Source of the DNA: Rhodospirillales bacterium
Lineage (GTDB): Bacteria > Pseudomonadota > Alphaproteobacteria > MPNO01 > UBA2964
Reading direction: 5' to 3'
Assembly (NCBI GenBank): GCA_038116945.1
Contig: JAYOEY010000002.1
Location: 20,958 to 84,957 of the forward strand
DNA length: 64,000 nucleotides
Shown here piece by piece: positions 1,328 through 53,710 of the stretch (position 1 is the first letter of the stretch; the number at the start of each line of letters is the position of its first letter). The position numbers were made by a program, and so were the translations under genes. Under the pieces are notes generated by a model. That model ran no database searches. It saw only the letters and a list, made by a program, of their open reading frames with translations, and had not been told where the DNA came from.

Positions 1328-1762
1328 TTGACGGACTCTGGCACCAATCACGAAATTTTCTTACGCGAAGAAACCGTAAAGACATCAACCGATCGCAGTT
1401 TCGGAATCGTGTTTACGGTCGTTTTCGCGATCATTGGCCTGTGGCCGCTGATGGGCGGACACGGGGTGAGGCTGTGGGCGATCGCGGTCGCCGGGGTCCT
1501 GCTGGTCGTCGCCCTGGTCAGGCCGGTCTGGCTGGCGCCGGCAAACCGGCTCTGGACGAAATTCGGGCTGCTGCTGCACCACGTTACGAATCCCCTCATC
1601 ATGGGGCTGGTATTCTTCGTTGTGGTAACGCCGATGGCGTTGGGAATGCGTTTTCTGGGAAAAGATCCGCTTTGCCGCAAAATCGACAAGTCGGCGAAGA
1701 GCTACTGGATTGACCGCGAACCGCCCGGGCCCAAGCCCGAAACCATGATCAATCAGTTTTGA
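1328..1762 (+). CDS. SxtJ-like small membrane protein (TTG start)
   Basis: 144 aa with two hydrophobic segments (FGIVFTVVFAIIGLWPL, LIMGLVFFVVVTP). The family is usually found beside a carbamoyltransferase and DUF5989. No in-frame ATG lies before the first transmembrane segment, so TTG at 1328 is the likely start. Confidence 0.6.
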   Translation: MTDSGTNHEIFLREETVKTSTDRSFGIVFTVVFAIIGLWPLMGGHGVRLWAIAVAGVLLVVALVRPVWLAPANRLWTKFGLLLHHVTNPLIMGLVFFVVVTPMALGMRFLGKDPLCRKIDKSAKSYWIDREPPGPKPETMINQF

Positions 1763-1769
1763 GTTTCTG

Positions 1770-1919
1770 ATGGGATTTCTCAGGGAATTCTGGAGTTTCA
1801 TGCGGGCGCGCAAGAAATTCTGGCTGCTGCCGATTTTCATTGTGCTGTTGCTGTTCGGCGGGCTCGTGATCCTGACCCAGGGATCCGCAGTGGCGCCGTT
1901 CATCTACACGATATTCTGA
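1770..1919 (+). CDS. DUF5989-like 49-aa membrane micro-protein (absent from ORF track, below its length cut-off)
   Basis: ATG 1770 to TGA 1917-1919, translated by hand as MGFLREFWSFMRARKKFWLLPIFIVLLLFGGLVILTQGSAVAPFIYTIF. It sits 7 nt after the SxtJ-like stop and 15 nt before the carbamoyltransferase. The KKFWLLPI...GSAVAPFIYT pattern matches the conserved SxtJ/carbamoyltransferase companion. Confidence 0.7.
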   Translation: MGFLREFWSFMRARKKFWLLPIFIVLLLFGGLVILTQGSAVAPFIYTIF

Positions 1920-1934
1920 TCTGCTGTCGTGGCG

Positions 1935-3770
1935 ATGCGGATCCTGGGCATATCGGCTTTTTACCATGACAGCGCGGCGGCGCTTGTTGAAGACGGCAAG
2001 GTCGTGGCGGCAGCCCAGGAAGAACGGTTCTCGAGGAAAAAACAGGATTCCGGTTTTCCGCAGGCAGCGATCGACTATTGCCTGGACGAAGTCGGCGCCA
2101 GTCTTTCCGACATCGATTTTGTCGCGTTCTACGACAAGCCTTTCCTGAAGTTCGAAAGACTGCTCGAAACCTACGTCGCCTATGCGCCTCGCGGGTTCGA
2201 ATCGTTCCGCATGGCGATGCCGGTCTGGCTCAAGGAAAAGCTGTTCCAGAAGACGCTGCTGAAGGACAGGCTGCGCAACGAAGCGCCCGATTTCAACTGG
2301 GACAACCGGCTGCTGTTTGCGGAGCACCATCAGAGCCATGCCGCCAGCGCGTTCTATCCGTCGCCTTTCGAAAACGCGGCGATCCTGACCATGGATGGCG
2401 TCGGCGAATGGACGACGACGTCGCTTGGAATCGGCAGCGGCAACAAGGTGGAAATGACGCGGGAGATTCATTTCCCCCATTCTCTCGGCCTGCTCTATTC
2501 CGCGTTTACCTATTACACCGGCTTCCGCGTCAATTCGGGCGAGTACAAGGTGATGGGGCTGGCCCCGTACGGCGAGCCCAGATACACGAAGACGATTCTC
2601 GACAATGTCATCGACGTGAAGGAGGATGGCTCTTTCCGGCTCGACCTTTCCTATTTCGATTTCTGTACCGGTTTGCGCATGACGAACGACAGGTTTCACG
2701 ACCTGTTCGGGGCTCCGCCGCGCGATCCCGAGAGCCTGCTGACCCAGCGCGACATGGACCTCGCCGCGTCGATTCAGGAAGTGACGGAAGAAGTCGTGCT
2801 TCGCCTCGGCCGGTCGATCGCGAAAGAGACGCAGGAAAAGAACCTGTGTCTCGCGGGCGGCGTCGCGCTCAACTGCGTCGCCAACGGCAAGCTGCTGCGC
2901 GACAACTGCTTCGAGAATATCTGGATCCAGCCGGCGGCCGGCGATGCCGGCGGCGCGCTCGGCGCAGCCCTGGTGGGCTATCATTATTTTCAGGATCAGC
3001 CGCGCAAGCTGAATGGCGCGATGGACGGCATGAAAGGCGCCTATCTGGGACCTGAATTCCGGCAGACCGACATCGAGGAGCGTCTTGCGGCGGCGGGGGC
3101 GGTGTTCAGCACGCTGTCGGACGACGATACGATCCGGCGCACCGCGGCCGCCCTGGCCGACGGCAAGGCGGTCGGCTGGTTCCAGGGACGGATGGAGTTC
3201 GGGCCGAGGGCTCTCGGCGGACGCTCGATCCTCGGCGATCCGCGCGACCCGGCCATGCAGAAGACGCTGAATTTGCGGGTCAAATACAGGGAATCGTTCC
3301 GTCCGTTCGCGCCGTCGGTCCTGGGAGAACACGTGTCGGACTGGTTCGAACTCGACAGGGAAAGCCCGTACATGCTGCTTGTCGCCAATGTCAAAGAGGA
3401 ACACCGGCGCGAGATGACGGCGGAAGAGCAGGCGCTGTTCGGAATCGACAAGCTCAACGTACCGCGCTCGTCGATCCCGGCGATCACCCATGTCGACTAT
3501 TCGGCGCGGGTCCAGACCGTACACGCGGAGACCAATCCCCGCTATCACGCGCTGATTTCCGCATTCAGGGACCTGACCGGCTGCCCGGTTCTGGTCAACA
3601 CAAGCTTCAACGTCCGGGGCGAGCCCATCGTGTGTACGCCCGAAGACGCGTTCCGCTGCTTCATGGGCAGCGGCATCGAGGTTCTGGTCGTCGGAAACTG
3701 CTATCTGGCGAAAGAAGATCAGGATCCCGCGCTTGCGGAAGACTACAAAGACAAGTTTGAACTGGATTGA
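1935..3770 (+). CDS. NodU/CmcH-family O-carbamoyltransferase
   Basis: 612 aa beginning MRILGISAFYHDSAAALVEDGKVVAAAQEERFSRKK (Kae1/HypF-like N-domain), with a C-terminal carbamoyltransferase domain. The ATG at 1935 is preferred over the GTG at 1929 used by the track. Confidence 0.85.
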   Translation: MRILGISAFYHDSAAALVEDGKVVAAAQEERFSRKKQDSGFPQAAIDYCLDEVGASLSDIDFVAFYDKPFLKFERLLETYVAYAPRGFESFRMAMPVWLKEKLFQKTLLKDRLRNEAPDFNWDNRLLFAEHHQSHAASAFYPSPFENAAILTMDGVGEWTTTSLGIGSGNKVEMTREIHFPHSLGLLYSAFTYYTGFRVNSGEYKVMGLAPYGEPRYTKTILDNVIDVKEDGSFRLDLSYFDFCTGLRMTNDRFHDLFGAPPRDPESLLTQRDMDLAASIQEVTEEVVLRLGRSIAKETQEKNLCLAGGVALNCVANGKLLRDNCFENIWIQPAAGDAGGALGAALVGYHYFQDQPRKLNGAMDGMKGAYLGPEFRQTDIEERLAAAGAVFSTLSDDDTIRRTAAALADGKAVGWFQGRMEFGPRALGGRSILGDPRDPAMQKTLNLRVKYRESFRPFAPSVLGEHVSDWFELDRESPYMLLVANVKEEHRREMTAEEQALFGIDKLNVPRSSIPAITHVDYSARVQTVHAETNPRYHALISAFRDLTGCPVLVNTSFNVRGEPIVCTPEDAFRCFMGSGIEVLVVGNCYLAKEDQDPALAEDYKDKFELD

Positions 3771-7425: not shown

Positions 7426-7673
7426 TTACCACTCCGTTCGTCCGGCTGGATCGTCTACTCCGGCGATCCGATACGTGTCAATCGAGGCTTGCGACCGCCG
7501 GACAGTAGCGATGAAGGTTAACCGAATCGTTGACGCGCGCGGCCGGAAAATTGCGCCGCGTCGCCAAAAAGCCGAAACCGGTCGTCGCCCGCGCAACAAA
7601 GTTGCAATATGCGTTCAGCCTGCATAGTTTGCCGGCCACTGATTTCGCCCGATTCCACACGGAGAGCCATGCC

Positions 7674-9341
7674 ATGCCGGCATCGCGGACGCCCATACAG
7701 AATGCCGACAACGCGTCAGTGCCCGCGCGCAGGAGTTCCGCGCTGAAGGCGCTGCTGACCTCGCCGCAGACCGAATTCGTCATGGAGGCTCATGACGGGC
7801 TGTCGGCGAAAATCGTCGAAGAAGCGGGGTTCAGGGGAATCTGGGCGTCGGGCCTTACGATGTCGGCGGCGCTTGGCGTTCGAGACAGCAACGAGGCGTC
7901 CTGGACGCAGGTTCTGGAAGTCCTTGAGTTCATGGCGGACGCGACATCGATCCCGATTCTGGTGGACGGCGATACGGGGTACGGCAATTTCAACAATGTG
8001 CGCCGGGTGGTCCGCAAGCTGGGCCAGCGGGGCATCGCCGGGATCTGCATCGAGGACAAGCTGTTTCCCAAGACCAACTCTTTTATCGGCGACGGGCAAC
8101 CGCTTGCCGATATCGACGAGTTCTGCGGCAAGATCAAGGCCGGCAAGGACAGCCAGGTCGACGACGATTTCTGCCTGGTTGCCCGCATCGAGGCGCTGAT
8201 TTCCGGACGCGGCATGGTGGAAGCGCTGAAGCGCGCCAAGGCCTATCACGAGGCCGGAGCCGATGCGCTGCTAATCCATTCCAAACAGCGCGACCCCGAG
8301 GAAATTCTCACCTTCCTCGCCGAATGGGGAAATCGCTGCCCGGTGGTGATCGTGCCGACAACCTATTACGACACGCCGACAGACGCGTGGCGCGATGCCG
8401 GCGTGTCGCTGGTCATCTGGGCCAACCATAATCTGCGCGCCTCCATCTCGGCGATGCGGGAGGTGTCGTCGCGGATCGCCCGCGAGCAGTCGCTGGCGGG
8501 GATCGAAAATTCGGTCGCCACCGTGCGGGAGATTTTTCAGATCGCCGGCAACGACGAGCTCGCGGAGGCCGAACGAAAATACCTGCCGGCGACCCCCGAC
8601 GCACCGCATGCGATCGTGCTGGCGGCTTCGCGCGGAGTCGAACTCGGGGCGCTGACCGAGGACCGTCCCAAATGCATGGTCGAAATTCGCGGGCAGCCGC
8701 TGCTGCGGCGGCTGGTCGATACTTTCCACGGCGGCGGGGTGCATGACATCACGGTGGTTCGCGGCTATCGCAAGGAAATGGTGAACCTTCCCTCGATCCG
8801 CGCCATCGACAACGATGCTTACGACAGCACCGGCGAGCTGGCGACGCTGGCCTGCGCGGCCGACCGGCTCGACGACGAAGTGCTGATCGCGTACGGGGAT
8901 ATCCTGTTTCGCCAGCACATTCTCGATCAGATCCGGAACGCGGATGGCGACATCGTGCTGGCGGTGGATGCGCTTTGGCGCGAACGCGATTCCGATCCCG
9001 GATCGCGCCATCGGGATCTGGTGCAGTGCAGCGCGCCGTTCCAGGTCGATTATCTTCAGGATGCTCCGGTATCGCTTCTCCGGATCGCGCCCGATATCGC
9101 CGAAAGCGACATCAACGGCGAGTGGATCGGACTGGCGCTGGCGCGCGAAAAGGGCACGGCCTCGATTCGGGCAGCAATCGCTACGATGCGCGCGGACGGA
9201 TCGCTTGAACGCGCCGGATTGCCCGGACTGTTTTCCCGGCTGATGGCGGATGGCGTCGAAATCGGCGTCGTCTATGTTGCCGGGCAGTGGCTTGATGTCG
9301 ACGATGCCGCCGACCTGAAGGCCGCGGACAGCTTTCTGTAA
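7674..9341 (+). CDS. ppm: phosphoenolpyruvate phosphomutase fused to a C-terminal LicC/PntC-like (phosphonate) cytidylyltransferase domain
   Basis: The N-domain matches PEP mutase motif for motif ([70 protein letters not shown]). The C-domain has nucleotidyltransferase motifs ([48 protein letters not shown]). The ATG at 7674 follows a GGAGAG ribosome-binding site. The track start at 7530 would add 48 aa with no homologous counterpart. Confidence 0.85.
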
Positions 9342-9348
9342 CCCGGCG

Positions 9349-10794
9349 TCAGATCAGCCCGCGCCGGCCCATATAGGCGTATATCCTGTCGGCGAGATCT
9401 TCGGGCGCATGTCCGACCGTATGCAGCACGATTTCAGCATTGTCGGGCGCCTCGTAAGGCGAATCGACACCCGTAAAGTTGCGGATTTCGCCCGCCCGGG
9501 CCCGGCGGTACAGGCCTTTCGGATCCCGCCGCTCGCATTCCTCGAGCGGCGTGTCGACGAAAATCTCGATGAATTCGTCGGGATCCACCATGTTGCGAAC
9601 CATTTCGCGTTCGCTCCTGAACGGCGAAATCAGCGCCGCCAGGACGATGGTGCCCGAATCGACGAACAGCCTCGCGACCTCGCCGACGCGTCGAATGTTC
9701 TCGACCCGGTCCTCCGGCAGGAACCCGAGGTCGCGGTTTAGCCCGAGACGCAGGTTGTCCCCGTCGAGCAGATAGGTCTGACAGCCTTCGGCATTCAGCC
9801 GCTTTTCAAGGGCGTTCGCAACGGTGGATTTGCCCGACCCGGACAGGCCCGTCAGCCAGATGAGCGCCGGCCTGTGGCCCGTGCGAGCCGAACGTGCCGC
9901 TTTGTCGACCGCCGTTTCATGCCAGGAAACGGTGCTCGATCGCCAGAGTGCGAACTCCAGCGAGCCGCCGCCGGCGGTCTCGCCCGTCGCCCGGTCGACA
10001 AGCAAGAAGCTGCCGTCCGGAGAATTTTCGGATTTCCGGTCCAGCGCAATTGCCGCGTCGAAAGCGATGTTAACATAGGCGAATTCGTATCGTCGCAGGT
10101 CCCGGGCGGCGAGCCTCTCGAGCGAGTCCGGATCGAAACGGTGTTTGATCTCCGTTACGTGAGCGGTCAGCAGCCGGTCGCCGATCCTTGCCGAATAGAG
10201 GCGCTCCGGGTAGAGCGGTTCGTCGGACAGCCAGAAAACATTCGCGGCGAAATGATCCGCGGGGCCCGTCGCATCCGCGTCCGACGATCCCGCAAAGGGC
10301 TGCCTGACCCGGCAGTTTTCCAGCCAGCGCATCACGGACGGTTCTTCCGGCTGCGACCCCGTTACCGAGCTCAAGAGCGGCCCGACGGTTACGCCGGACA
10401 GGCCGAGAGGCGACAGAATGCTCCGCGCCTGTGCCGACAGGTCGGCGAGAACGGCCGGATCTTCCGCATCGATCGCGAGAAAGATGGAGGGCACTCCCAT
10501 CCTGGCGAACAGGTATGCGAGCGACCGGACCGACGTCGACAGGCGGCGTTCCGAATCCGCGATAATGACCGCGGCGTCCGCGACAGATGCAGCAATCGCG
10601 TTCGCGCCCGGAGATTGCTCCGGGTCCCACGCCTCATCGACGCCGTACAGGCGGTCGCCTGCCGACAACCGGCCGTCAGCGACGGGCAACCCGACAGCGG
10701 GGACGGTTTCGCCGTTGCCGTTCCACCTGCGGATAAGAAGACGCAGGCGCGCGTCGCCGTCTTTCGGTTCGTCGATCATGAAACGTTGCGGCAT
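9349..10794 (-). CDS. cysC: adenylylsulfate (APS) kinase CysC fused to a degenerate CysN-like N-terminal region lacking the GTPase P-loop
   Basis: The C-terminal 180 aa are canonical APS kinase ([68 protein letters not shown]). The N-terminal 300 aa align to the late G-domain and domains II/III of CysN ([13 protein letters not shown]...IFLAIDAED; [17 protein letters not shown]), but there is no GxxxxGK[ST] P-loop and NKMD is replaced by IDAED. Confidence 0.8.
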
Positions 10795-10863
10795 CCGGAC
10801 AGAAACTCGGCACTCATGACAGCGGGGCTTTCCCGTTCGACCCAGACCGGCCTGCGCGACAGT

Positions 10864-12588
10864 CTATTGCAGCTTGTCCGTCGAGGGGGCGCAGGGGCTG
10901 ACACCGCCGTTCGCGGTTCCTCTTCTTCGCGCCAGCGCATCCTTCAGCCGGTGTTCGAATACGGTCGATGCCTCGCGCTGATACAGAACGTTCGTCAACG
11001 TCCGCCAGATTCGTTTCGGGTAGAAGAGATAGCTGATGAGGTAGTTGGTCACCATGAAACCCAAACGATAGATCGCAAGTTCCCGGCGGCCGATCGTCTC
11101 GTTGTGCGTGAGCGGCTTGAGCGATGTAAATTCGCTGTTGAGCGACGTCAGCCCGAGGAAATAGCGGTCGCTCAGCTCAATCACGCCGCTTTCCTGAAGG
11201 TGCGCGAAAATTTCCGTGCCGGGATAGGCGGAATAGATGTTGATCGATGCCTCGTCGACGCCCCTTGCGGCCATCTTGAGCCCGAACCAGACGGTCCGGT
11301 ACACATCGGCGCGCGTTTCGCCCGGAAAACCGATGATCAGGTTGGTCCGAAGCGTCAACCCCAGCCTTCGCGCCGCCATCACCGATTCCGTCAGGCGATC
11401 GAGCGACACCTTTTTCTTGATCAGCTCCAGCGTTCTGGGCGAGCCGCTTTCCGGCGCGTAACACAGATAGGTGCAGCCGGTCTTTTTCAGCAGCCCAAGC
11501 GTCTCCGCATCCAGCGCCTCCGAGCGGGTGCCCGACGGCAGCGACCATTTTACGTTGATGCCTTCGTCCAGCATCCGCTGGCACAGTTCGACGGTCCATT
11601 GTTTCTTGGTGATCGCCGTCAGGTCGTAGAGCTGTATCGACGTGATGTCGTATTCGCGGATGTAATGTTTCATCTCGGCGATGACGTCGTCGATGTCGCG
11701 CAGCAGATATCGCGTCGTCCACATCTGCGCGCTCGAGCAGAAGGTGCACTGAAACGGGCAGCCGCGCGAAATCATCATCGGCATGTCCCGTTCGGTCTGG
11801 ATGCCGAAAGACTTGCCGGCAGACCAGAATTTTTCCAGATAGCCGTTCTGCCAGTGGGGCCACGGAATGTTGTCGACATCCCGGATCCGGGTCAGGCCGA
11901 CGCTTTCCAGAAACTGTCCGTCGGGTCCGATCGTACAGACGCTGGCCAGGTTCGCCGGATCGCTTCCCTCGCGAACGGCCTCGACGATTTCGTAGAAGAC
12001 ATGCTCGCCCTCGCCCAGCGCGATGGCATCCAGCGCCGGGCAGTCGCGCAGCGAATATTCCGGCAGCGCGGTTGCGTGTTCGCCTCCCGCGACCAGAAAA
12101 GCGTCGGGAAAACGCGCGCGAACGGCTTCGATCAGCCGACGGTGTATCGGCCACTCGCCGGAAAACATGGTCGAAAACCCGATGACCCGGGCGTTTCCGG
12201 GGATCATCGCGACGGTCTGTTCGATGGTGATGCCCTGACACTGGTATCCGTCGATTCCCTCCGGGTGCCAGATGACGTTGAGCCCTTCGCCGACCGCATC
12301 GACGATGACCGGTTCATAGCCGCGTTTCTTCAGATAGCCGGCAATGAAAGCCAGCCCGATCGCGGGCGTCGCTTCGTTATTGAAAGCCGCGTAGGTGGAA
12401 AGGATCGGGCCCCGGACCAGCGCCACGCCGAATTCCGCTGCGCCGGCGTCGGCCGATACAGCGCCGACATCTCTCATGATCGGGCGCGGATTGCCGAACT
12501 TGCCGGGCGCGGGCGCGTTCAGCGAGCCCGGATCGGAACCCGGATCGGAAGTCGTGTCGATGTTCGCGGAGCCTGACATTGCAACCAT
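10864..12588 (-). CDS. cobalamin-dependent (class B-like) radical SAM enzyme number 1 (possible start at Met38, nt 12477)
   Basis: N-terminal B12-binding-like region (AIGLAFIAGYLKKRGYEPVIVDA) followed by a radical SAM core with ISRGCPFQCTFCSS (C-x3-C-x2-C). Confidence 0.8.
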   Translation of the reverse strand: MVAMSGSANIDTTSDPGSDPGSLNAPAPGKFGNPRPIMRDVGAVSADAGAAEFGVALVRGPILSTYAAFNNEATPAIGLAFIAGYLKKRGYEPVIVDAVGEGLNVIWHPEGIDGYQCQGITIEQTVAMIPGNARVIGFSTMFSGEWPIHRRLIEAVRARFPDAFLVAGGEHATALPEYSLRDCPALDAIALGEGEHVFYEIVEAVREGSDPANLASVCTIGPDGQFLESVGLTRIRDVDNIPWPHWQNGYLEKFWSAGKSFGIQTERDMPMMISRGCPFQCTFCSSAQMWTTRYLLRDIDDVIAEMKHYIREYDITSIQLYDLTAITKKQWTVELCQRMLDEGINVKWSLPSGTRSEALDAETLGLLKKTGCTYLCYAPESGSPRTLELIKKKVSLDRLTESVMAARRLGLTLRTNLIIGFPGETRADVYRTVWFGLKMAARGVDEASINIYSAYPGTEIFAHLQESGVIELSDRYFLGLTSLNSEFTSLKPLTHNETIGRRELAIYRLGFMVTNYLISYLFYPKRIWRTLTNVLYQREASTVFEHRLKDALARRRGTANGGVSPCAPSTDKLQ

Positions 12589-12767
12589 GATATGTATGGG
12601 GTTCGGATTCAGCAGTAAAGGAATTTTGAATCAAGGGTTTCCGGCTATCCTTGCCGTTTCCGGCGTTCAGCCCTCTATCTGCCGGTGTCCCCATGCCGTT
12701 CCGGGAGATCCCGACGCAGCCGGGCGGTCGCGGGAACGACATAAAATAAGGAAAATAAAGAATATTC

Positions 12768-12832
12768 TTGACGTTCATGGCGCGAACGCTTTAGTGTTCG
12801 TGCCGTGAACAAGATTGTTCAGAACGTGAACG
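12768..12832. promoter_or_regulatory. operator cluster 1: three tandem GTTC-N7-GAAC palindromes, overlapped by a TTGACG -35-like hexamer
   Basis: CGTTCATGGCGCGAACG (12772-12788), TGTTCGTGCCGTGAACA (12795-12811), TGTTCAGAACGTGAACG (12816-12832). Centre-to-centre spacings are 23 and 21 bp. TTGACG at 12768-12773. An AT-rich tract (ATAAAATAAGGAAAATAAAGAATATTC) lies immediately upstream. Confidence 0.6.
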
Positions 12833-20618: not shown

Positions 20619-21830
20619 ATGCTGAAAAAATGCAGCCAGTGCGGTCTGCCGGAAACCTACGAGACGATCGAGTTCGACGGACAGGGCGTCTGCAATATCT
20701 GCAATCAGAAGTCCTATCGCGACGGCGCCATCGACTGGGACGCACGCTACGCCATTCTCGCCGATCTGATCGAGCAGTACCGGGGCAAGCACGATTACGA
20801 CTGCATCGTGCCGTTTTCCGGCGGAAAAGATTCGACCTATACGCTGTGGCGGCTGGTAACGGACTTCAAGATCAAGCCGCTGGTGGTTCAGTTCGATCAC
20901 GGCTTCATGAGACGCGGGCTCAGGGAAAACAATCTGAGAACCTTCAAGAAGCTGGGCGTGGACGTTCTTTCCTTCACGCCCAACTGGAAACTGGTCAAGC
21001 GTCTGATGCTGGAGGCGCTCGTCCGCAAGGGCGATTTCTGCTGGCACTGCCATACCGGAATCTTCTCTTACCCCATGCATGTCGCGCTCCGTTACGAGGT
21101 GCCGCTGGTCTTCTGGGGAGAGCCATCGAGCGAATACACGGCCTATTACGACTACCGCGACGACGAGATCGAGGAGGTCGACGAGGAGCGGTTCAACCGG
21201 TTCGTCAATCTGGGGATCACGGCCGAGGACATGGCCGGCATGATCGACGCCGATTTCGAATTCGACAGGCGCGATCTCGCGCCGTTTACCTACCCGCCGC
21301 TCAGGAGCCTCAAGCGGCTGGGTTACCGGTCGGTGTGTCTGGGGTCGTTCATCCCGTGGGATGTTCGCAAACAGGTTGGAATCATAGAACGCGAACTGGG
21401 CTGGAAGGGCGATCAGGTCGAAGGCATGCCGTGGGATGCGTACCCTTATGAAAAGATCGAGTGCTTCATGCAGGGTATGCGCGATTACATCAAGTACATG
21501 AAGCGGGGCTATTCGCGCGTCAGCCAGATGGTTGCGCTCGATCTTCGCAACGGGCGGATCGAAAAGGAAGCGGCGGACAGGCTGGTGGAACAGTTCGAAG
21601 GCCGGAAGCCGCCCTCGCTTGAAATCTTTCTCGAATATCTCGGCCTGACCGAGGACGAATTCAATTCGATCGTCATGAAAACCGTCGTTCCGCCGCACGC
21701 GCCAGACCTTGCGTCGCTTGAGGTTGCTCCCAGGACATGGGATTTCGATCAATGGTATCGCGAGGCGCCCGAGGACCGGGGAATCCCGTGCAAACCGGGC
21801 GCTTGCCGCACCTGTTTCGACTGCGCCTGA
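20619..21830 (+). CDS. PP-loop N-acetyl sugar amidotransferase (PseA/WbuX/WbpG family), copy 1
   Basis: N-terminal Cys cluster (CSQCGLP...CNICNQ) and PP-loop (CIVPFSGGKDSTY). AGGAGA ribosome-binding site 6 nt upstream. Confidence 0.8.
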   Translation: MLKKCSQCGLPETYETIEFDGQGVCNICNQKSYRDGAIDWDARYAILADLIEQYRGKHDYDCIVPFSGGKDSTYTLWRLVTDFKIKPLVVQFDHGFMRRGLRENNLRTFKKLGVDVLSFTPNWKLVKRLMLEALVRKGDFCWHCHTGIFSYPMHVALRYEVPLVFWGEPSSEYTAYYDYRDDEIEEVDEERFNRFVNLGITAEDMAGMIDADFEFDRRDLAPFTYPPLRSLKRLGYRSVCLGSFIPWDVRKQVGIIERELGWKGDQVEGMPWDAYPYEKIECFMQGMRDYIKYMKRGYSRVSQMVALDLRNGRIEKEAADRLVEQFEGRKPPSLEIFLEYLGLTEDEFNSIVMKTVVPPHAPDLASLEVAPRTWDFDQWYREAPEDRGIPCKPGACRTCFDCA

Positions 21831-21863
21831 CGGACGGCGCGACTGCCAACCGGCTCCCGGCGG

Positions 21864-22481
21864 ATGATCGGCATTCTCGACATCGGGATGGGCAATCTCG
21901 GCTCGGTATGGAACGCGACTTACGAGTCGGGGTTCGATCCCGAGATCGTCATCGATCCGGACGATCTCGACCAGATCGACCACCTCATCCTGCCCGGGGT
22001 CGGCCATTTCGCGACCGCGATGGAAAAACTCTGCGAAATGGGCATGGTCTCGCCGCTCAGGAGCTATGTCGAAAGCGGCCGTCCGCTGCTCGGTCTCTGC
22101 GTCGGCATGCAGGTGCTGGCCACCGAGGGAACGGAAGGCGCCAGGACGCCAGGGCTCGATATCATCGCCGGGACGGTCGACCGACTGCCGGTCAATCCGC
22201 CCTTCCGGGTACCGCATATCGGCTGGAACGCGGTCAGCGCCGTCCGGGATCATCCCGTCCTGGAGCGCATCAAACCTGAACGGGACTTTTACTTCGTCCA
22301 TTCCTACGCGTTCCGTCCGGTGGACGAGGCGAACATCGTGGCAAGAACCGAATACGGCGCGCCGTTTGCATCGATCGTCGGCCGGGCGAACGTACTCGGG
22401 TGCCAGTTCCACCCCGAGAAGAGTCAGGCCAACGGGTTGCGGATCCTGGAAAACTTCTGCCGGTGGGACGGGGTATGCTGA
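21864..22481 (+). CDS. HisH-like glutamine amidotransferase (WbuY-like), copy 1
   Basis: IGILDIGMGNLGSV, LLGLCVGMQVL (catalytic Cys), CQFHPEKS. Confidence 0.85.
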   Translation: MIGILDIGMGNLGSVWNATYESGFDPEIVIDPDDLDQIDHLILPGVGHFATAMEKLCEMGMVSPLRSYVESGRPLLGLCVGMQVLATEGTEGARTPGLDIIAGTVDRLPVNPPFRVPHIGWNAVSAVRDHPVLERIKPERDFYFVHSYAFRPVDEANIVARTEYGAPFASIVGRANVLGCQFHPEKSQANGLRILENFCRWDGVC

Positions 22482-23239
22482 AAAAACGCATCATCGCCAT
22501 CCAGCTCCTGCTCGGGGAACGGCTGGTCAAGACCCGCGAATTCGGCGGTTACCGAGATGTCGGCGATCCCGTAAAAAGCGCCGCCGTCTACAATTCGCAG
22601 CATCTCGACGAGCTGATCCTGCTGAATATCGATCGCGACCGGCGCTCGGCTGACGTTTTCGCCGACTGGCTCAAGGAAATTTCCAAGGTCTGTTTCATGC
22701 CGCTGTCGATCGGCGGCGGCATCACCGGGTTCGACGACGCGGCGTTTCTGATCAAGAACGGCGCCGACAAGGTCGTGGTCAACAGCGCCGCATACCGCGA
22801 CAAGAAGCTTCTTGGAGAAATCGCGAACCGTTTCGGATCGCAGGCAGTCGTTGTCGGCATCGATGTGAAGCGGGACCCCTCGGACGGGCGCATCCGGCTC
22901 TATTCGGATTGCGGCCGAAGCGCCGAGCCGGTCGCGCTCGCCGATCACATCCGTTCCTGCGTCGATGCCGGCGCGGGCGAAATTTTTGTCCAGTCGATCG
23001 ACAATGACGGGGTCATGAAAGGGTTCGATATCCCGCTGATCGCGGAAACGCAGGCGGCGGCCGCCGTACCGGTAATCGGCGCCGGCGGGTCCGGCACCTA
23101 CGAGATGCTCCGCGAGGCCTTTGTCGCGACCGATGTCAGCGCGCTCGCCTGCGGCAGCATGTTCAATTTTACGGACAGCCAGTGGATGCGGGCCAAGGCG
23201 CATCTGACCAATTACGGACTTCCCTTCAAGGCGGTGTGA
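22475..23239 (+). CDS. HisF-like cyclase subunit (WbuZ-like), copy 1
   Basis: MLKKRIIAIQLLLGERLVKTREF and SIGGGITGFDD. Overlaps the upstream gene by ATGCTGA. Confidence 0.85.
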   Translation: MLKKRIIAIQLLLGERLVKTREFGGYRDVGDPVKSAAVYNSQHLDELILLNIDRDRRSADVFADWLKEISKVCFMPLSIGGGITGFDDAAFLIKNGADKVVVNSAAYRDKKLLGEIANRFGSQAVVVGIDVKRDPSDGRIRLYSDCGRSAEPVALADHIRSCVDAGAGEIFVQSIDNDGVMKGFDIPLIAETQAAAAVPVIGAGGSGTYEMLREAFVATDVSALACGSMFNFTDSQWMRAKAHLTNYGLPFKAV

Positions 23240-28718: not shown

Positions 28719-28814
28719 CTCGCCATGGTCGCGGTCGTCAGTCCGGATGCCGCATCCCGACCCGCTTCTGCGGAAGCCGGGAAACCCCTTTCATTCTGAA
28801 TTCATAGAAGCTTG

Positions 28815-30170
28815 ATGAAGATACTTATCCACGTCGACTCCCTTATTCGCGACTTCGCCCATCTGGGGGTGCTGGCCGAACTCCTGACGCGGATGGGGCA
28901 CAACGTCCAGCTCAGCTCGCGAATGACGACGATCCCCCTTATCAGGCTCTGGCGGCCGGATCACATTATCCACAGCCTGGGGGATCAGATCGGGGGTCTC
29001 TTCGATGCCGGGCTCATGGGCCGGAAGGGCGTCGAGGTTTCTTTTATTCCGCAGGAAGGCAGCGAGCGGCACGAACTCAACCGTCAGTTCATTTACAACC
29101 GGGTTCTCGAACCGGACTGTCTCGACAGGATCGCCCATATTTTCTGCTGGAACGACGCGCACCGGCAATGGCTCCTGTCGCGCGACGCCGGTCTCGGAGA
29201 CCGGCTTTCGGTCGTGGGCAACCCCCGTCTCGACATCGCAAAATTCTGGAGCGGCGGCGGCAAGCCCCGCCAACGCATCCGTATCGGGTTCGTCGGCCGC
29301 TTTCCGTTTATCAACAAGTACAATCGGCCCGATTTTCTCGAACTCCTGACCATGGGCGACCGTCCGCTTTGCTCGAAAGACGATTGCGACTGGGATGAGC
29401 TCGAAGCCAGCACAGAGGCGATCCTAAGCCAGGTCGCCACGTATTCGCGCTACTGCCAGCTCATTCATTACTTCATGGCCAATACGGACTACGAGGTGAG
29501 CCTGCGGCCGCATCACGAGGAAGCGGCGCGCGGGCCGGCGTTCAATGCGCTCAAGGCGGCCTACGGCGACCGGGTCGAGATCGATCACGGGTTCTCGATC
29601 TACGAATGGGCCAGCGGCCTCGACGCCATCCTGACAACCGCATCCCTGACCTTCGCCGAAGCCTACATTGCCGGGGTCCCGGTGATCTCCATCGACAAGC
29701 TGACGCGCGTCAGCGACTATCTCGGCTTCGAAGCCAGGGAAATCCTGAACTCCTATGATCGACGGTTCGTTCCCGATACTTACGACGAACTCATGCAGAC
29801 GCTTGAAGACTGCCTCGCAGATGGTTTCGTGCCGCCTAAAGTTCCCGGCATGGAAACCTATATGAAAGAGGATTTCAGCCATCCCTATACGGGGTCATCG
29901 CTCCTCAAGATCGCGCGTACCATCGATAAAAGGGTTCGCGCCGCAGGCAGCGTCGGCGGGCCCAGCCTCGTGCCGGCATGGCTGGTGCAGCAGTCGTACT
30001 GGGTGCAGCTGTTCCGTTATCATGGCAACCAGCCGAGTGTCGGGATAGACAAGCATTACCATCCGTCGCCGCATCGTACGCCCGATTACATCGGCCGCAT
30101 CGTCGCGAACATCCTGGCCGAGGAAGCGGCGGAAGCCGATCGGAAGACCGGCGCATCCGAGGCGGCGTAA
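28815..30170 (+). CDS. hypothetical protein, surface-carbohydrate-biosynthesis type (putative GT-B-like transferase)
   Basis: 451 aa with no diagnostic motif. Its position between the deacetylase and pseI is typical of uncharacterised Pse-cassette proteins. Confidence 0.35.
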   Translation: MKILIHVDSLIRDFAHLGVLAELLTRMGHNVQLSSRMTTIPLIRLWRPDHIIHSLGDQIGGLFDAGLMGRKGVEVSFIPQEGSERHELNRQFIYNRVLEPDCLDRIAHIFCWNDAHRQWLLSRDAGLGDRLSVVGNPRLDIAKFWSGGGKPRQRIRIGFVGRFPFINKYNRPDFLELLTMGDRPLCSKDDCDWDELEASTEAILSQVATYSRYCQLIHYFMANTDYEVSLRPHHEEAARGPAFNALKAAYGDRVEIDHGFSIYEWASGLDAILTTASLTFAEAYIAGVPVISIDKLTRVSDYLGFEAREILNSYDRRFVPDTYDELMQTLEDCLADGFVPPKVPGMETYMKEDFSHPYTGSSLLKIARTIDKRVRAAGSVGGPSLVPAWLVQQSYWVQLFRYHGNQPSVGIDKHYHPSPHRTPDYIGRIVANILAEEAAEADRKTGASEAA

Positions 30171-34309: not shown

Positions 34310-35533
34310 ATGTCTCGACAACGCGTCGCCGAACGAGCGGGTTTCGGCAAATCCCGCCAGGCCGTACGGCGGCGCGCTGAAATTGCCGTGACCGCCCGAG
34401 TTCTCATATTTGTCGAGGACCCCGGCGCCGCTAATTTTGCCGCGCCGCTGGCAGCGGCGCTCGGCGAATCCGGGATCGACGTCATTCGTCTCGCAGCCGG
34501 GCATGCCTCGGCGTTTCTTTCGAACGACGACGCTTCGTGGGCCACCCCCGATGACGATGCCGACGCGATCCTGTCAGCCCGACGTCCCGACGCGGTGCTG
34601 GTCGGCACTTCCGAAAATCATTGCAGTCTGGCCCACCGCCTTGTCGAGGCGGCCGGGAAGCGGCGCCTGCGGACCGCCGCGCTGATCGACGGCCTGGCCA
34701 ATGCGACGCACCGGTTTTCCGGCGGCGACGCCGCGTCGCCGCTGCGTCATTGCCCCGACTGGCTGCTGGTTCCCGACGCAGCGGTACGCAATGCCTATCT
34801 CGAGCTCGGCCTGTCCGACGAACGCGCGATCGTCGTCGGGCATCCGTATTTTGACGTCGTGCGGCGCAGGGCCTGCGATCTCGACCCGGAAAAACGTGCG
34901 ACAGCGCGGCGCGCCCTTCTGCCGGCGATTGCCCCGGATCGGCCTGTCGTCACGTTTCTCGCGGAAGTGAATGACGGGCTCGATCCCGCGGGCTACCGGC
35001 GAACGGCGGCGTACACGCTTCGCGGCCGCGGTTCCCGCGACGACCGGACCGGGATCGTTCTGGAAGAAGTCCTCGACGCGTGCGCCGGTCTGCATCCCCG
35101 GCCCGCACTCGTGCTCCGACCGCATCCGAAAAACGCGCCCGGGGATTTCGGCGGGCTGAAAAACGAAGTCGATGCCGTCATCGAGGCGGTGCCGATCTTC
35201 GACCTTCTCGCCGTCTCGGCGGTCGCGGTCGGCATGACGTCGATGCCGTTGACGGAGGCAGTGCTGATGGGCGTTCCGGCGCTCAGCGTATTGCCCCGTG
35301 CGATCGAGGCGCAATGGCTGTCGTGCACCGCGCTGGGGCTCGTTCCGGTCGCCGCCACCCGAGACGAGGTCGCGCCGTCGATCGCGTCGGCACTCGGCGG
35401 CGCAAACCAGCCGGCACGGGAAGCCGTCGATTCGGCATTTCCCCACGGCGCCATCGAAAATGCGGCGGCGGCGGTGCGGAGAATGCTGGGCGACGGTTCG
35501 GAGCGCCCGGTTATTCCGCGAGAAGCGCCCTGA
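34310..35533 (+). CDS. hypothetical protein (Rossmann/GT-B-like, function unknown)
   Basis: 407 aa with no diagnostic motif. It is the last gene of the plus-strand operon and converges on pseB with a 23 bp overlap. Confidence 0.35.
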   Translation: MSRQRVAERAGFGKSRQAVRRRAEIAVTARVLIFVEDPGAANFAAPLAAALGESGIDVIRLAAGHASAFLSNDDASWATPDDDADAILSARRPDAVLVGTSENHCSLAHRLVEAAGKRRLRTAALIDGLANATHRFSGGDAASPLRHCPDWLLVPDAAVRNAYLELGLSDERAIVVGHPYFDVVRRRACDLDPEKRATARRALLPAIAPDRPVVTFLAEVNDGLDPAGYRRTAAYTLRGRGSRDDRTGIVLEEVLDACAGLHPRPALVLRPHPKNAPGDFGGLKNEVDAVIEAVPIFDLLAVSAVAVGMTSMPLTEAVLMGVPALSVLPRAIEAQWLSCTALGLVPVAATRDEVAPSIASALGGANQPAREAVDSAFPHGAIENAAAAVRRMLGDGSERPVIPREAP

Positions 35534-42273: not shown

Positions 42274-44370
42274 TCAGCCGCCGGTATTGACGCCGATGCC
42301 GGCGGCCTGCCGCTTGAACATCCGGGCGAAAATGAACGTGCTGCCCCTCAGGAAGGTGACGAACTTGTCGAAGGTCCGGATATCCAGAAGGTGCTCAAGC
42401 AATTTTCTCGGGCGCAGGTAAAAGCGCCGGAAGGCATATTTCTGCAATTCCAGAATGCGTTCGTCGGACAGGCTTTCGAGATGATGCACAGGCCGCGTGT
42501 AGACCCCGTACATGGAATAGTCCCGGCTGTCGATCAGCCCTTTCTCGTCGAGCTGGTAATACACCTCGCTGCCGGGAAACGGTTTCAAAATCAGAAACTT
42601 GGCAAATTTGACATCGAGCTCGACGGCGAACTCGATGGTTTCCTTTATGCTTTCCTCGTCGTCGCCCGGCAGGCCGATCATGAAGAAGCCCCAGGTATCG
42701 AGCCCCAGACCCTTTGCGGTATCGACGGCTTTGCGGACGCGATCCTTGTTGATTCCCTTCTTGATCACCTTGAGGACCCGTTCGCTGCCCGACTCGATCC
42801 CGAATCCGACATTGGTCAGGCCGACATCGCGCAGCAGGGTCAGGATTTCCTCGTTGACCATATCGGCACGCAGCCCATTGGCTACCTGAAGTCGCAGCTT
42901 GTACGGCTCCTGTTTCAGGAGCGTACAGAACTCCCTGACGAAAGGTTTGTTGGCGGTGATGACGTCGTCGAGAAAATGAATTTCCTTTACGCCGTATGTC
43001 TCCACCAGATGCCGAATCTCCTCGATAACGTTCTGGGGAGACCGGAACCGCGTCCGGCGGCCGAAAATGTTCTTGGTCTGGCAATAGGTGCACTGACCGG
43101 GGCATCCGCGCGACACCATCACCGGCGCCACTGGCAGAAACTCCGCGTCGGCCGGCTCGTACTTGTCCAGGTGATTGATCAGATGCATCGCGGGAGGCGG
43201 ATAATCGTCCAGTTCGGGCGCAAGGCTCCGCGCGCCGGTCGCAAGGATTTCTCCATCGTCCGTACGCGTTACGATGCCCTTGATGCGCGAGATGTCGCGA
43301 TCGTTGGCCATGATCGCGTCGACCAGCTCGACCGCAGTGCACTCGGCTTCGCCCACCGCGATATAGTCGAGACAGGTCTCCTTGGCGCAATTCATCGGGT
43401 CGATGGTGGCGTGAATACCGCCAAGAATCGTGCGAATCGCCGGGTTCGCCTTCTTGGCTTCGGAAGCAATGGCGACCGCATTCGGGAATGTCGGCGTCGT
43501 TGCGGTGATGCCCAGGACATCGAAGCGACCTTCCGTCACGCGCTGCACCACTTCCGGCAGATTGATGCCGTCCGCATCCTGATCAATGACCTCGACGTAA
43601 TGCCCGGCCTTTTCGAGCATCGCCGCGATCCACAACACGCCCAGCGCCGGATAGGCCGGCGGGATTTCCACCCCGTATACGTTGAACTGAGAAGGGATCA
43701 CCAGCAAGACGCGTCCGCAAACTCTGTCGCGGCCAAGAATCGACCCGACGGTTTCCTCTTCGGGCAAAGAAGCCGGCGCAACCGGCGTATTCAGCCATAC
43801 GTCGGAAAACCCCTGACCTTCCACCGTCTTCTTGGTGTAGGAGGCAATCACTTCCGACATCTTCGCCTGGCGGTCGAAAATCGCGCGATTGACGGATACG
43901 CCCGCCGGTGCCGCGGTGGCGGCGTCGAACTCTGGATTCTCCGCGATCGCCAGCACCGGCGCGAGGCTGTCGATTGCCGCCGCGAAATGGGCGGATCTGA
44001 CCCGCTGAAACGGATCCGCATCCGAAGAGCCGGTCGCCCCGATCAGGACAGTGCGCACCTTGGGGAAATGATAAATACAGCGCTGAGCGAGCAGGGCGGG
44101 ATCGTAACCCGGCGCGGTTGCGTCCAGCAGGAAAACGACATCGGGCGCGCCCAGTTCGTTGTCCAGCATGAACATCGCGTCTTCGATGGTTTGCTCGACC
44201 GCATCGATTTCGATCAACTCATGGTCAATGTCCGCAGACCGGAGCGCATCGCGCAACGGCGGAAAGTCATTTTCCCCGCCGGTTGCCGGCGCGCGAGGCA
44301 CCAGTGCGACGATGCCGCCCTCGGTCGAACCCAGGGAGCGTGAAACCTGTCGTGTTTCGGTGGAATCCAT
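42274..44370 (-). CDS. cobalamin-dependent radical SAM enzyme number 2, with an extra N-terminal alpha/beta domain of about 220 aa
   Basis: VSRGCPGQCTYCQ (C-x3-C-x2-C) and B12-domain-like LLVIPSQ...GVLWIAAMLEKAGHYVEVID beginning around residue 236. The first ATG is at 44370; the track start at 44409 is TTG. Confidence 0.8.
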   Translation of the reverse strand: MDSTETRQVSRSLGSTEGGIVALVPRAPATGGENDFPPLRDALRSADIDHELIEIDAVEQTIEDAMFMLDNELGAPDVVFLLDATAPGYDPALLAQRCIYHFPKVRTVLIGATGSSDADPFQRVRSAHFAAAIDSLAPVLAIAENPEFDAATAAPAGVSVNRAIFDRQAKMSEVIASYTKKTVEGQGFSDVWLNTPVAPASLPEEETVGSILGRDRVCGRVLLVIPSQFNVYGVEIPPAYPALGVLWIAAMLEKAGHYVEVIDQDADGINLPEVVQRVTEGRFDVLGITATTPTFPNAVAIASEAKKANPAIRTILGGIHATIDPMNCAKETCLDYIAVGEAECTAVELVDAIMANDRDISRIKGIVTRTDDGEILATGARSLAPELDDYPPPAMHLINHLDKYEPADAEFLPVAPVMVSRGCPGQCTYCQTKNIFGRRTRFRSPQNVIEEIRHLVETYGVKEIHFLDDVITANKPFVREFCTLLKQEPYKLRLQVANGLRADMVNEEILTLLRDVGLTNVGFGIESGSERVLKVIKKGINKDRVRKAVDTAKGLGLDTWGFFMIGLPGDDEESIKETIEFAVELDVKFAKFLILKPFPGSEVYYQLDEKGLIDSRDYSMYGVYTRPVHHLESLSDERILELQKYAFRRFYLRPRKLLEHLLDIRTFDKFVTFLRGSTFIFARMFKRQAAGIGVNTGG

Positions 44371-44606
44371 TAAAGCCCCATTTCCGTTGGGCGTTACCGA
44401 ATCAAACAAGTCCCCGGCGGTCGTTCCGGGCGCCGACGGGGAATGAACTTCCGCCTGCCGACGGGGCTTGTCCGCCCGATTCCAGTATGAAATCCTGCCC
44501 TTTAGACAAAACGTTATGTAGTCTGCGCCCCCGACTCGATCAACCCTTAACTTGTCGACGCCTCGCCGATTGACCGTCGGGCGCCGGCCGGACCGCCTGC
44601 TGAACC

Positions 44607-49164: not shown

Positions 49165-49529
49165 TGTCAATTCTGGCGATGATCGGCGGTTGCGACAAGA
49201 CCTGTAACACAGCGGGTCCGGATCGACCGCGACAGTCGGCGGGAGTGGCATTAACAGCGGATTTCCGCGGGTGCGGGAACGCGTGGCCGTCTCCGGCGGG
49301 CGGCGAATTTCTCCCGCCCCCCGAATCGGCTAAACGGGCAATATAGGCAAGCGGCGGTTTCTGCTTACCTTGCCGTCGGCACCGGAGCGCTTGTGCGCCG
49401 GAAATGCGATGCCAACGGGTGGACCTGTTTCACCCGAAGTACGGTAGTGTGCCTCATCGCAGGGTTGACATTCCCGACGATGCGCCGCCCGATATCTGTC
49501 AACATGTTTCAAGGTCACCAGCCGACGAC

Positions 49530-52657: not shown

Positions 52658-53710
52658 ATGGCATCGGCCCTTGAAGACAGCCTGCTCTCGTCGGGTGCGA
52701 CGATTCGCGACGCGATCGAAACCATAGACAGAAGCCTTCACAAGATCGCCCTGGTGATCGACGGAGACGGGCGTTTGACGGGGACGATCACCGACGGCGA
52801 TATCCGTCGCGCCCTGCTTGCGGGCAGGACGACGGAACATCCTGCGGAATCCATCATGTTCCGATCGCCGCTCTCTGCATCCGTCGATGGCGCCCTGGAT
52901 GAGGTGGAACGGATCGCGCAAAGGCGTCAGATACGCAAGGTGCCGGTTCTCGACGCCGACGGCCGGGTTGTCGCGGTGCATACAATCGACGGAGTCGGTA
53001 CGGGGCCCTTCGCCGAAAACGAAGTCGTGCTGATGGCGGGCGGGCTCGGCACCCGGCTGCAGCCGCTGACCAAGGACTCCCCCAAGCCGCTTCTCAATGT
53101 CGGCGAAAAGCCGATGCTGGAAACGATCGTCGACCAGCTCGTCAGCCAGGGTTTCCGGACGTTCCATTTTTCCGTCCGGTACAAGGCCGAGATGGTCGAA
53201 GCGCATTTCGGAAACGGAGACAGGTGGGACGCCGAGTTTCATTATCTTCACGAGGACGCGCCGCTGGGCACGGCGGGCGCCCTGTCCCTGCTGCCGAAAC
53301 GGCCGACGCTTCCATTCATCGTCATGAATGCAGACGTCCTGACCAAGGTCGATCTGATGCATCTGCTCGATTTCCACGCGGAGACCCGGGCGGTAGCAAC
53401 CATGTGCGTTCGCGCCCACGACGTTCAGATTCCCTTCGGCGTCGTTGCGACGGACGGGTCCCGGATCCTGTCCGTCGAGGAAAAGCCGGTTAAAAAATAC
53501 TTCGTGAATGCCGGTATCTACGCGCTCGCCCCGGAAGTCCTCGATCGCGTTCCCGCCGACGAGGCGCTGGACATGCCCGACCTGTTCAACGGCCTTGTCG
53601 CGGAGAACTGCAGGGTCGCGGCGTTTCCGGTTCGCGAATACTGGATCGATGTCGGACGGCACGAGGATTTTCGGCGCGCCAACGACGATTACGCGGGCCA
53701 GTTCTCGTGA
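52658..53710 (+). CDS. tandem CBS domain + sugar-1-phosphate nucleotidyltransferase (PtmE-like)
   Basis: N-terminal CBS pair, then VVLMAGGLGTRLQPLTKDSPKPLL. Confidence 0.75.
   Translation: MASALEDSLLSSGATIRDAIETIDRSLHKIALVIDGDGRLTGTITDGDIRRALLAGRTTEHPAESIMFRSPLSASVDGALDEVERIAQRRQIRKVPVLDADGRVVAVHTIDGVGTGPFAENEVVLMAGGLGTRLQPLTKDSPKPLLNVGEKPMLETIVDQLVSQGFRTFHFSVRYKAEMVEAHFGNGDRWDAEFHYLHEDAPLGTAGALSLLPKRPTLPFIVMNADVLTKVDLMHLLDFHAETRAVATMCVRAHDVQIPFGVVATDGSRILSVEEKPVKKYFVNAGIYALAPEVLDRVPADEALDMPDLFNGLVAENCRVAAFPVREYWIDVGRHEDFRRANDDYAGQFS

Follow-up and report, generated by a model that had tools for sequence, protein, structure and literature searches.

A 64,000-nucleotide stretch of DNA from a Rhodospirillales bacterium (contig JAYOEY010000002.1; referred to below, at its full length, as the window) carries on its minus strand a gene for an adenosine 5′-phosphosulfate (APS) kinase preceded by a degenerate part of CysN, the GTPase subunit of ATP sulfurylase. 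The gene is interpreted here as a probable product of the decay, in place, of a cysD–cysNC sulfate-activation operon. The open reading frame (ORF) and its parts are listed below with the evidence for each assignment, which includes an AlphaFold2 (AF2) model with predicted local distance difference test (pLDDT) scores and ratios of non-synonymous to synonymous substitution rates (dN/dS).

9349–10794, minus strand: whole ORF, vestigial CysN plus intact APS kinase; 481 aa and a stop codon, ATG start
10273–10794, minus strand: degenerate, shortened CysN G domain, residues 1–174 (BLASTP, alignment, AF2 model, dN/dS)
9940–10272, minus strand: CysN domain III (GTP-eEF1A_C β-barrel), residues 175–285 (PF22594, 1ZUN_B, pLDDT about 90)
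9352–9939, minus strand: APS kinase (CysC) domain, residues 286–481 (PF01583, TIGR00455, 3UIE, Foldseek)
10705–10728, minus strand: relic of the G1 P-loop, RWNGNGET (residues 23–30) in place of GSVDDGKS (protein and DNA alignments)
10615–10638, minus strand: relic of G3/switch II, DEAWDPEQ in place of (C)DAPGHEQ (alignment, BLASTP)
10459–10473, minus strand: relic of G4, IDAED in place of NKMD (alignment, BLASTP)

Intact kinase and eroded CysN portion

A first-pass annotation of the window described the C-terminal domain as a textbook APS kinase, and profile and structure searches agree. PF01583 spans residues 309–457 (Pfam; 227.8 bits against a cut-off of 21.1, E 7.6e-68), and two NCBIfam models also score above their cut-offs (TIGR00455, 252.3 bits against 138.7; PRK03846, 283.5 bits against 163). 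The kinase region matches Arabidopsis thaliana APK1 (PDB 3UIE) with an E-value of 5e-64 by sequence and 52% identity in the Foldseek alignment; the AlphaFold model reaches Foldseek target-normalised TM-scores (TMt) of at least 0.9 against solved APS kinases. The Walker A P-loop GLSGSGKST is located at residues 316–324 and the LDGDN motif, with the catalytic Asp, at residues 343–347 (motifs as defined in PMC4373884). In Mycobacterium tuberculosis CysC, ATP and APS are contacted by the P-loop Lys, Asp480, Arg483, Arg497, Phe492, Phe576, Ile523–Ser524, Cys556, Arg559 and Lys562; the APS site comprises two Arg residues that contact the phosphosulfate, Phe residues that sandwich the adenine, the Ile–Ser backbone and the Cys, Arg and Lys of the lid (PMC4373884). 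The counterparts in the window kinase, mapped by offset, are K322, D346, R349, R363, F358, F440, I389–S390, C420, R423 and K426, with C420, R423, K426 and F440 in the lid. Among 50 CysNC sequences these positions show little or no variation, and the kinase is 76–80% identical to the kinases of syntenic relatives that have retained the whole CysNC protein. When separated from CysN, the M. tuberculosis CysC domain still forms dimers and is active (PMC4373884), and the CysN part is therefore dispensable for catalysis. Judging by sequence, the kinase most probably catalyses the reaction ATP + APS → 3′-phosphoadenosine 5′-phosphosulfate (PAPS) + ADP, PAPS being the donor of sulfate.

The N-terminal part is, as had been proposed, derived from CysN. 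It was examined in an alignment of the window protein with full-length CysNC proteins, with the syntenic full-length CysNC P0007 as the BLASTP reference. Residues 34–159 align to residues 90–220 of P0007, which extend from the strand that follows switch I up to and including G5 (28% identity, E 2e-10), and residues 178–281 correspond to domain III. The GTPase motifs in the aligned region have been lost: DAPG of G3 has become EAWD, NKMD of G4 has become IDAE and SAL of G5 has become LSS. The replacement of NKMD, already noted in the first-pass annotation, is thus evident in the alignment, and Pfam finds neither GTP_EFTU (PF00009) nor EF-Tu domain 2 (PF03144) in the window protein. The same annotation had considered the P-loop and switch regions absent. 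Switch I is indeed deleted and the P-loop is non-functional, but a relic of the latter, RWNGNGET, is still visible; together with strand 1 it can be set codon for codon against LRLITCGSVDDGK in the DNA alignment with loci L087 and L006. The G1 consensus GxxxxGK[ST] is broken at its first Gly, replaced by Arg, and at its Lys, replaced by Glu. A deletion of about 50 residues after the relic has removed helix 1 and switch I.

The late G domain and domains II and III had been thought to be retained. This applies to the late G domain and to domain III, whereas domain II, the first β-barrel of about 90 aa, has been deleted outright at the C-terminal edge of the degenerate G domain. Domain III is recognised by PF22594 at residues 181–278 (E 1.7e-12), aligns to residues 332–431 of 1ZUN_B and is modelled with a pLDDT of about 90. 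The order of parts in the AF2 model is an α/β core without the helix after strand 1, then domain III, then the kinase. The CysN model TIGR02034 gives 77 bits against a cut-off of 336, and the CysNC/NodQ model NF004035 gives 377.9 bits against 715, with model positions 329–629 alone being matched.

An exhaustive HMMER search with residues 1–177 against 1.84 billion representative proteins recovered no canonical CysN; it returned P0003 (the representative of the truncated family itself), one repetitive protein and P0122 (215 aa, matching residues 18–64). Within this set, the whole truncated family falls into one 50%-identity cluster. A search with residues 1–205 against an index of 5.8 billion proteins gave no match, but it also missed the identical protein P0001, which is a limit of the tool.

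The surfaces through which CysN touches CysD lie near switch I/II and the β-barrels (PMC5770160), and the regions of the window protein that correspond to these contact sites are deleted or mutated. The protein would thus be unable to bind or hydrolyse GTP in the manner of CysN or to drive the CysD sulfurylase, and its CysN remnant would have no catalytic role.

An assembly or frameshift artefact masking a normal CysNC has a negligible probability. No point in favour of it was found. The gap between the ORF and the upstream gene is 69 bp, and tblastn with a full CysNC against all frames of the window detects this gene only, with no additional piece of a G domain or of domain II. Independent assemblies of differing origin show an identical architecture (P0001, P0002 at locus L001, P0003 at locus L003, and locus L088), P0001 being 100% identical to the window protein. 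A P-loop segment hidden in a separate exon or missed through a frameshift, which the first-pass annotation had named as a circumstance that would overturn its view, is ruled out by the short upstream gap, the tblastn result and the agreement of these assemblies.

The N-terminal remnant is probably translated and still folds. A 13-codon mini-ORF (ATGAGTGCC...TCATGA) lies upstream of the kinase gene at 10776–10817 on the minus strand; its stop codon and the second in-frame ATG (10779) share an ATGA, and translational coupling is possible.

Unequal constraint on the two halves

Substitution rates were estimated for the separate parts of the gene in pairs of relatives, using rough pairwise Nei–Gojobori (NG86) values.

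Truncated pair L001/L003, N-terminal remnant: dN/dS 0.31, dN 0.316
Truncated pair L001/L003, domain III: dN/dS 0.23, dN 0.131
Truncated pair L001/L003, kinase: dN/dS 0.10, dN 0.058
Intact pair L087/L006: dN/dS 0.12 for the G domain, 0.07 for domain II, 0.06 for domain III and 0.06 for the kinase
Neighbouring genes, whole: dN/dS 0.05–0.13

Over the comparisons made, dN/dS ranges from 0.31 to 0.45 for the N-terminal remnant, from 0.23 to 0.27 for domain III and from 0.10 to 0.15 for the kinase. By dN, the CysN remnant evolves at 3–5 times the rate of the kinase, and compared with intact relatives the constraint on both the remnant and domain III is relaxed 3–4 fold. The neighbouring genes are 81–92% identical between the window and its relatives, and this protein is 55–63% identical overall. 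The remnant has a coding-type GC content at third codon positions (GC3) of 0.78, and the probability of a 174-codon frame staying open by chance is about 0.016. Conservation of the kinase is thus that of a functional gene; constraint on the CysN part, including domain III, has weakened several-fold without reaching neutrality.

These rates are relevant to the proposal, made in the first-pass annotation, that the protein is a pseudo-GTPase scaffold and not an active CysN. The GTPase is indeed dead, having lost G1, G3 and G4 as functional motifs and switch I and domain II altogether, and the window contains no cysD. The scaffold half of the proposal is not supported, as the remnant evolves at the rate expected of a vestige. 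A functional scaffold would use the G domain and domain III for docking a partner (for instance a sulfotransferase, or a CysD or Sat from another locus) or for setting the oligomeric state, thereby channelling APS or PAPS. It would account for a dN/dS below 1 (0.23–0.45), for a frame that has stayed open in at least three lineages and for the retention of domain III in three independent derivatives lacking domain II. The AF2 model also predicts a compact α/β core at residues 11–140 with a pLDDT of 66–91, although intact CysN sequences in the underlying alignment may have raised these scores artificially. A precedent is the APS kinase of Thiobacillus denitrificans, reported in work cited in PMC4373884 to have an inactive ATP-sulfurylase-like domain (3CR8). 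On the other hand, the surfaces by which CysN contacts CysD are among the parts lost or altered, no gene for a partner lies next to this one, the relaxation affects both the remnant and domain III, and a family confined to one 50%-identity cluster is more readily explained as a recent decay product than as an established module. A scaffold is accordingly considered unlikely; the rates fit a translated vestige under folding or solubility constraint better than a specialised scaffold.

The same rates argue against a pseudogene that has no function left and is in the process of being lost. The loss of cysD, the erosion of the CysN half and the weak ribosome-binding site would suit such a gene, as would the copy at locus L002, which appears frameshifted. 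However, the kinase dN/dS of 0.10–0.15 equals that of neighbouring functional genes, and the catalytic motifs are all intact in the window, L001 and L003, which makes a pseudogene very unlikely. Many other L002 genes (GCA_038141065.1, contig JAYQHJ010000028.1) are split too: PEP (phosphoenolpyruvate) mutase, heparinase-like and rsmB genes are split or frameshifted along with the CysN-remnant kinase gene, and this looks like assembly error rather than pseudogenisation.

Probable derivation from a cysD–cysNC operon

The genes on either side of the kinase gene are the following.

10864–12588, minus strand: B12-binding radical S-adenosylmethionine (SAM) gene, upstream and co-directional; best NCBIfam match to the P-methyltransferase family NF038361, far below the cut-off
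7530–9341, plus strand: PEP mutase fused to an NTP_transf_3 nucleotidyltransferase (pepM-NT), convergent neighbour; TIGR02320, 391 bits against a cut-off of 320

The kinase gene was earlier taken to be co-operonic with the radical SAM gene, and the two are on the same strand with 69 bp (10795–10863, minus strand) between the stop codon of the latter and the ORF start. The adjacency of pepM-NT to cysNC or to its remnant is kept in all close relatives. In the loci of P0004 (L087), P0006 and P0007, the same chromosomal site holds a 299-aa cysD overlapping a 631–633-aa cysNC; the cysD gene (900 bp) is directly upstream of cysNC, and these intact pairs are convergent with the same pepM-NT gene as in the window. 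The right flank is shared as well and contains genes for a UDP-sugar dehydrogenase, a heparinase II/III-like protein, rpe, a carbamoyltransferase, DUF5989, SxtJ, rsmB and an M48 peptidase. The window protein is 68% identical to P0004 and P0007, and also to P0006, over domain III and the kinase. The radical SAM gene is found upstream of cysD in the P0007 locus and is absent from the L087 and P0006 loci; it belongs to the variable part of the glycan island that occupies the window. Relatives have a membrane gene of the LPG_synthase_TM family between a HTH_24/NusG-like regulator pair and the radical SAM gene (L003, 3602–4606; L002, 6893–7861), and this gene is missing at 12589–12804 of the window.

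No cysD was found in the 64-kb window or in L001–L003, and neither DNA alignment nor tblastn revealed a relic of it in the 69-bp spacer. By comparison, cysD is adjacent to cysNC in 69 of 88 sequences (87 fetched loci and the window). In a neighbour-joining tree built on domain III and the kinase with 50 bootstraps, the truncated clade (the window, P0002 and P0003) is monophyletic (50/50) and sister to the intact clade (45/50). Wider searches extended the sampling little. A metagenome scan added only L088, a near-duplicate of L001, and L089, an intact relative cut at its 5′ end. The first of two genome-contig scans contained no relatives and the second contained canonical CysNC only, at 61% identity or less. 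A plasmid collection gave only distant partial matches, with no annotation for the locus.

The same site in relatives holds an intact cysD–cysNC pair, the truncated and intact clades are sisters, and cysD is absent; the gene is therefore taken to be a product of decay in place. The ancestor would have carried a normal cysD–cysNC sulfate-activation operon at this site. In the clade of the window, cysD would have been deleted; the CysN GTPase would then have lost the P-loop lysine, helix 1 and switch I, G3, G4 and the whole of domain II, the kinase remaining under strong purifying selection. APS would be supplied by another ATP sulfurylase encoded elsewhere in the genome, and the protein would be a GTP-independent APS kinase fed by that enzyme. 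An APS kinase bearing a CysN vestige that arose by in-place erosion of a cysD–cysNC operon is assigned a probability of about 70%; domain anatomy, motif loss, synteny and relative rates are observed directly, whereas enzymatic activity, the origin of the APS and the use made of the PAPS are inferred.

Several observations weigh against this interpretation. No ATP sulfurylase or sulfotransferase was found in the 64 kb, so that neither an enzyme supplying APS nor one consuming PAPS is in view. The annotated ATG at 10794 has no clear Shine–Dalgarno sequence upstream. With dS near saturation (0.5–1.6) and pairwise NG86 estimates, the dN/dS ratios are rough. The dN/dS of the remnant, at 0.2–0.45, is well below 1, and domain III has also been kept in the independent domain-II-less derivatives P0012 and P0106; the remnant may have a residual role in folding, oligomerisation or partner docking. 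P0012 (L004, 383–2035) and P0106 (L005, 274–1890) are CysNC derivatives without domain II and without an upstream cysD, and they belong to separate clades; such reduction is therefore recurrent. In P0106 the P-loop, DxPGH and NKMD motifs are intact, and its C-terminal part is about 95% identical to P0117 and P0054 (607–613 aa).

Among known systems, the CysD–CysNC/NodQ type (M. tuberculosis Rv1286; Pseudomonas syringae CysN, PDB 1ZUN) is the direct evolutionary parent, from which the order of G domain, domain III and kinase has been kept. Unlike CysNC, the window protein has no functional G1, G3 or G4, no switch I, no domain II and no adjacent cysD, and it scores below the CysNC and CysN cut-offs; it is a member of the APS kinase family that departs from CysN and CysNC in every defining respect. 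It shares the fold and the catalytic machinery of stand-alone CysC and plant APK1 (PDB 3UIE, 4FXP), to which it adds a CysN-derived N-terminal extension of 285 residues. The two-domain APS kinase of T. denitrificans (3CR8) likewise pairs an active kinase with an inactive remnant of the enzyme one step earlier in the pathway (Gay, Segel and Fisher 2009, as cited in PMC4373884). However, the dead domain of that protein is of the homo-oligomeric Sat type and that of the window protein derives from the CysN GTPase subunit; the two proteins align over the kinase region alone (residues 303–476).

The locus can thus be read as the stepwise paring of a multi-enzyme sulfate-activation operon to the one activity still needed, with the ancestral state preserved at the same locus in relatives. 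The GTPase-dead remnant derived from CysN joins a short list of APS kinases bearing dead relics of the preceding enzyme. Pathway chemistry as known is unchanged; this is reductive evolution and not a new enzyme, and the biochemical surprise is modest. Annotation calls for caution, since proteins of this kind can readily be misannotated as CysN or CysNC.

The glycan island and the possible fate of PAPS

About 52 ORFs of the window were scanned with Pfam and NCBIfam. The window represents a nonulosonic-acid glycan island encoding NeuB, two DegT aminotransferases and PseB-like and PseG-like enzymes, together with three CMP-sugar synthetase-like genes, two WbuX amidotransferases with HisH/HisF-like partners, a Maf/MptE-like protein, one MBOAT, one ABC exporter and four B12-radical SAM enzymes. 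The kinase gene had been regarded as a dedicated PAPS-generating gene inside this island. It is instead situated at the conserved edge of the island, where relatives hold a complete cysD–cysNC pair, and locus context alone is an insufficient ground for inferring PAPS-dependent sulfation.

The scans found no sulfotransferase family among these ORFs, as the first-pass annotation had also reported, and a regular-expression search found no motif resembling the 5′-phosphosulfate-binding (5′-PSB) loop in any of them; the island extends past the end of the window, and these negatives cover the window only. A NodPQ/NodH-type sulfation module, in contrast, has a sulfotransferase in its locus. Three large hypothetical proteins had been suggested as sulfotransferases. 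Two of them weakly match glycosyltransferase-like models and the third is modelled as a glycosyltransferase B (GT-B) fold, which, with the negative 5′-PSB check, speaks against the suggestion; sequence comparison of all three with PDB, and AF2 modelling with Foldseek for 56673–58706, likewise gave no sulfotransferase. The protein encoded at 28812–30170 (plus strand) has no Pfam match and weak NCBIfam matches to TIGR04396, 'surface carbohydrate biosynthesis protein', and to the BFO_1060 family. The one at 34310–35533 (plus strand) also has no Pfam match and a weak NCBIfam match to the BFO_1060 family. Both are probably nonulosonic-acid-related transferases. The third (56673–58706, plus strand, 677 aa) has only three homologues in the 5.8-billion-protein index, one of which carries PF27878; its AF2 model (pLDDT 69) has a GT-B fold resembling UDP-GlcNAc 2-epimerases and OGT. 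This gene adjoins a WbuX amidotransferase gene and the Maf/MptE-like gene. As to the fate of PAPS, a sulfotransferase encoded outside the window and PAPS-dependent sulfate assimilation have roughly even odds.

The convergent pepM-NT gene raises another reading, in which the kinase has been recruited to 3′-phosphorylate a nucleotide-activated phosphonate made by its neighbour, giving a PAPS-like phosphonyl donor. The analogy is with Cj1415 of Campylobacter jejuni, which is reportedly an APS kinase homologue. That system would likewise place an APS-kinase-type kinase beside a nucleotidyltransferase in a surface-glycan locus. As cited in PMC11800397, the four enzymes Cj1415–Cj1418 together make CDP-phosphoramidate 3′-phosphate. 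Besides this pathway, the reading draws on the presence of pepM-NT beside the gene in every close relative and on the want of a sulfotransferase in the window. However, the presence of complete CysD and CysN GTPase genes at this site in relatives implies true sulfate activation there; the kinase retains 76–80% identity to their kinases with all APS contacts conserved and no acceleration in rate, clustering tightly with genuine CysNC kinases, in contrast to the Cj1415 system; and the linkage to pepM is absent outside this small clade. The pepM-NT and kinase genes are convergent, so they are not co-transcribed. No genes of Cj1416–Cj1418 type (cytidylyltransferase, amidohydrolase, glutamine kinase) were detected among the ORFs scanned, and a literature search found nothing linking PEP mutase or phosphonates with an APS kinase. 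Recruitment to a phosphonate substrate is therefore highly improbable. That the co-opted kinase would make a donor for decorating the nonulosonic-acid glycan, as a phosphonate counterpart of the Cj1415 pathway, is slightly less probable still. No thiamine pyrophosphate (TPP)-type phosphonopyruvate decarboxylase, an enzyme that could pull the unfavourable PEP mutase equilibrium, was found among the roughly 52 ORFs of the 64 kb.

The four B12-binding radical SAM proteins of the island are encoded at 10864–12588 and 42274–44409 on the minus strand and at 49404–51578 and 61322–62866 on the plus strand. The WbuX-type N-acetyl sugar amidotransferases with HisH/HisF-like partners are encoded on the plus strand at 20619–23239 and at 54417–55199 and 58670–60043, implying acetamidino-modified sugars. 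A PtmE-like CBS-nucleotidyltransferase at 52658–53710 suggests that both legionaminic-type and pseudaminic-type pathways are present. Finally, a conserved trio of SxtJ, DUF5989 (49 aa) and a NodU/CmcH-type carbamoyltransferase is located between rsmB and rpe (1328–3770, plus strand), which suggests carbamoylation of a surface glycan.

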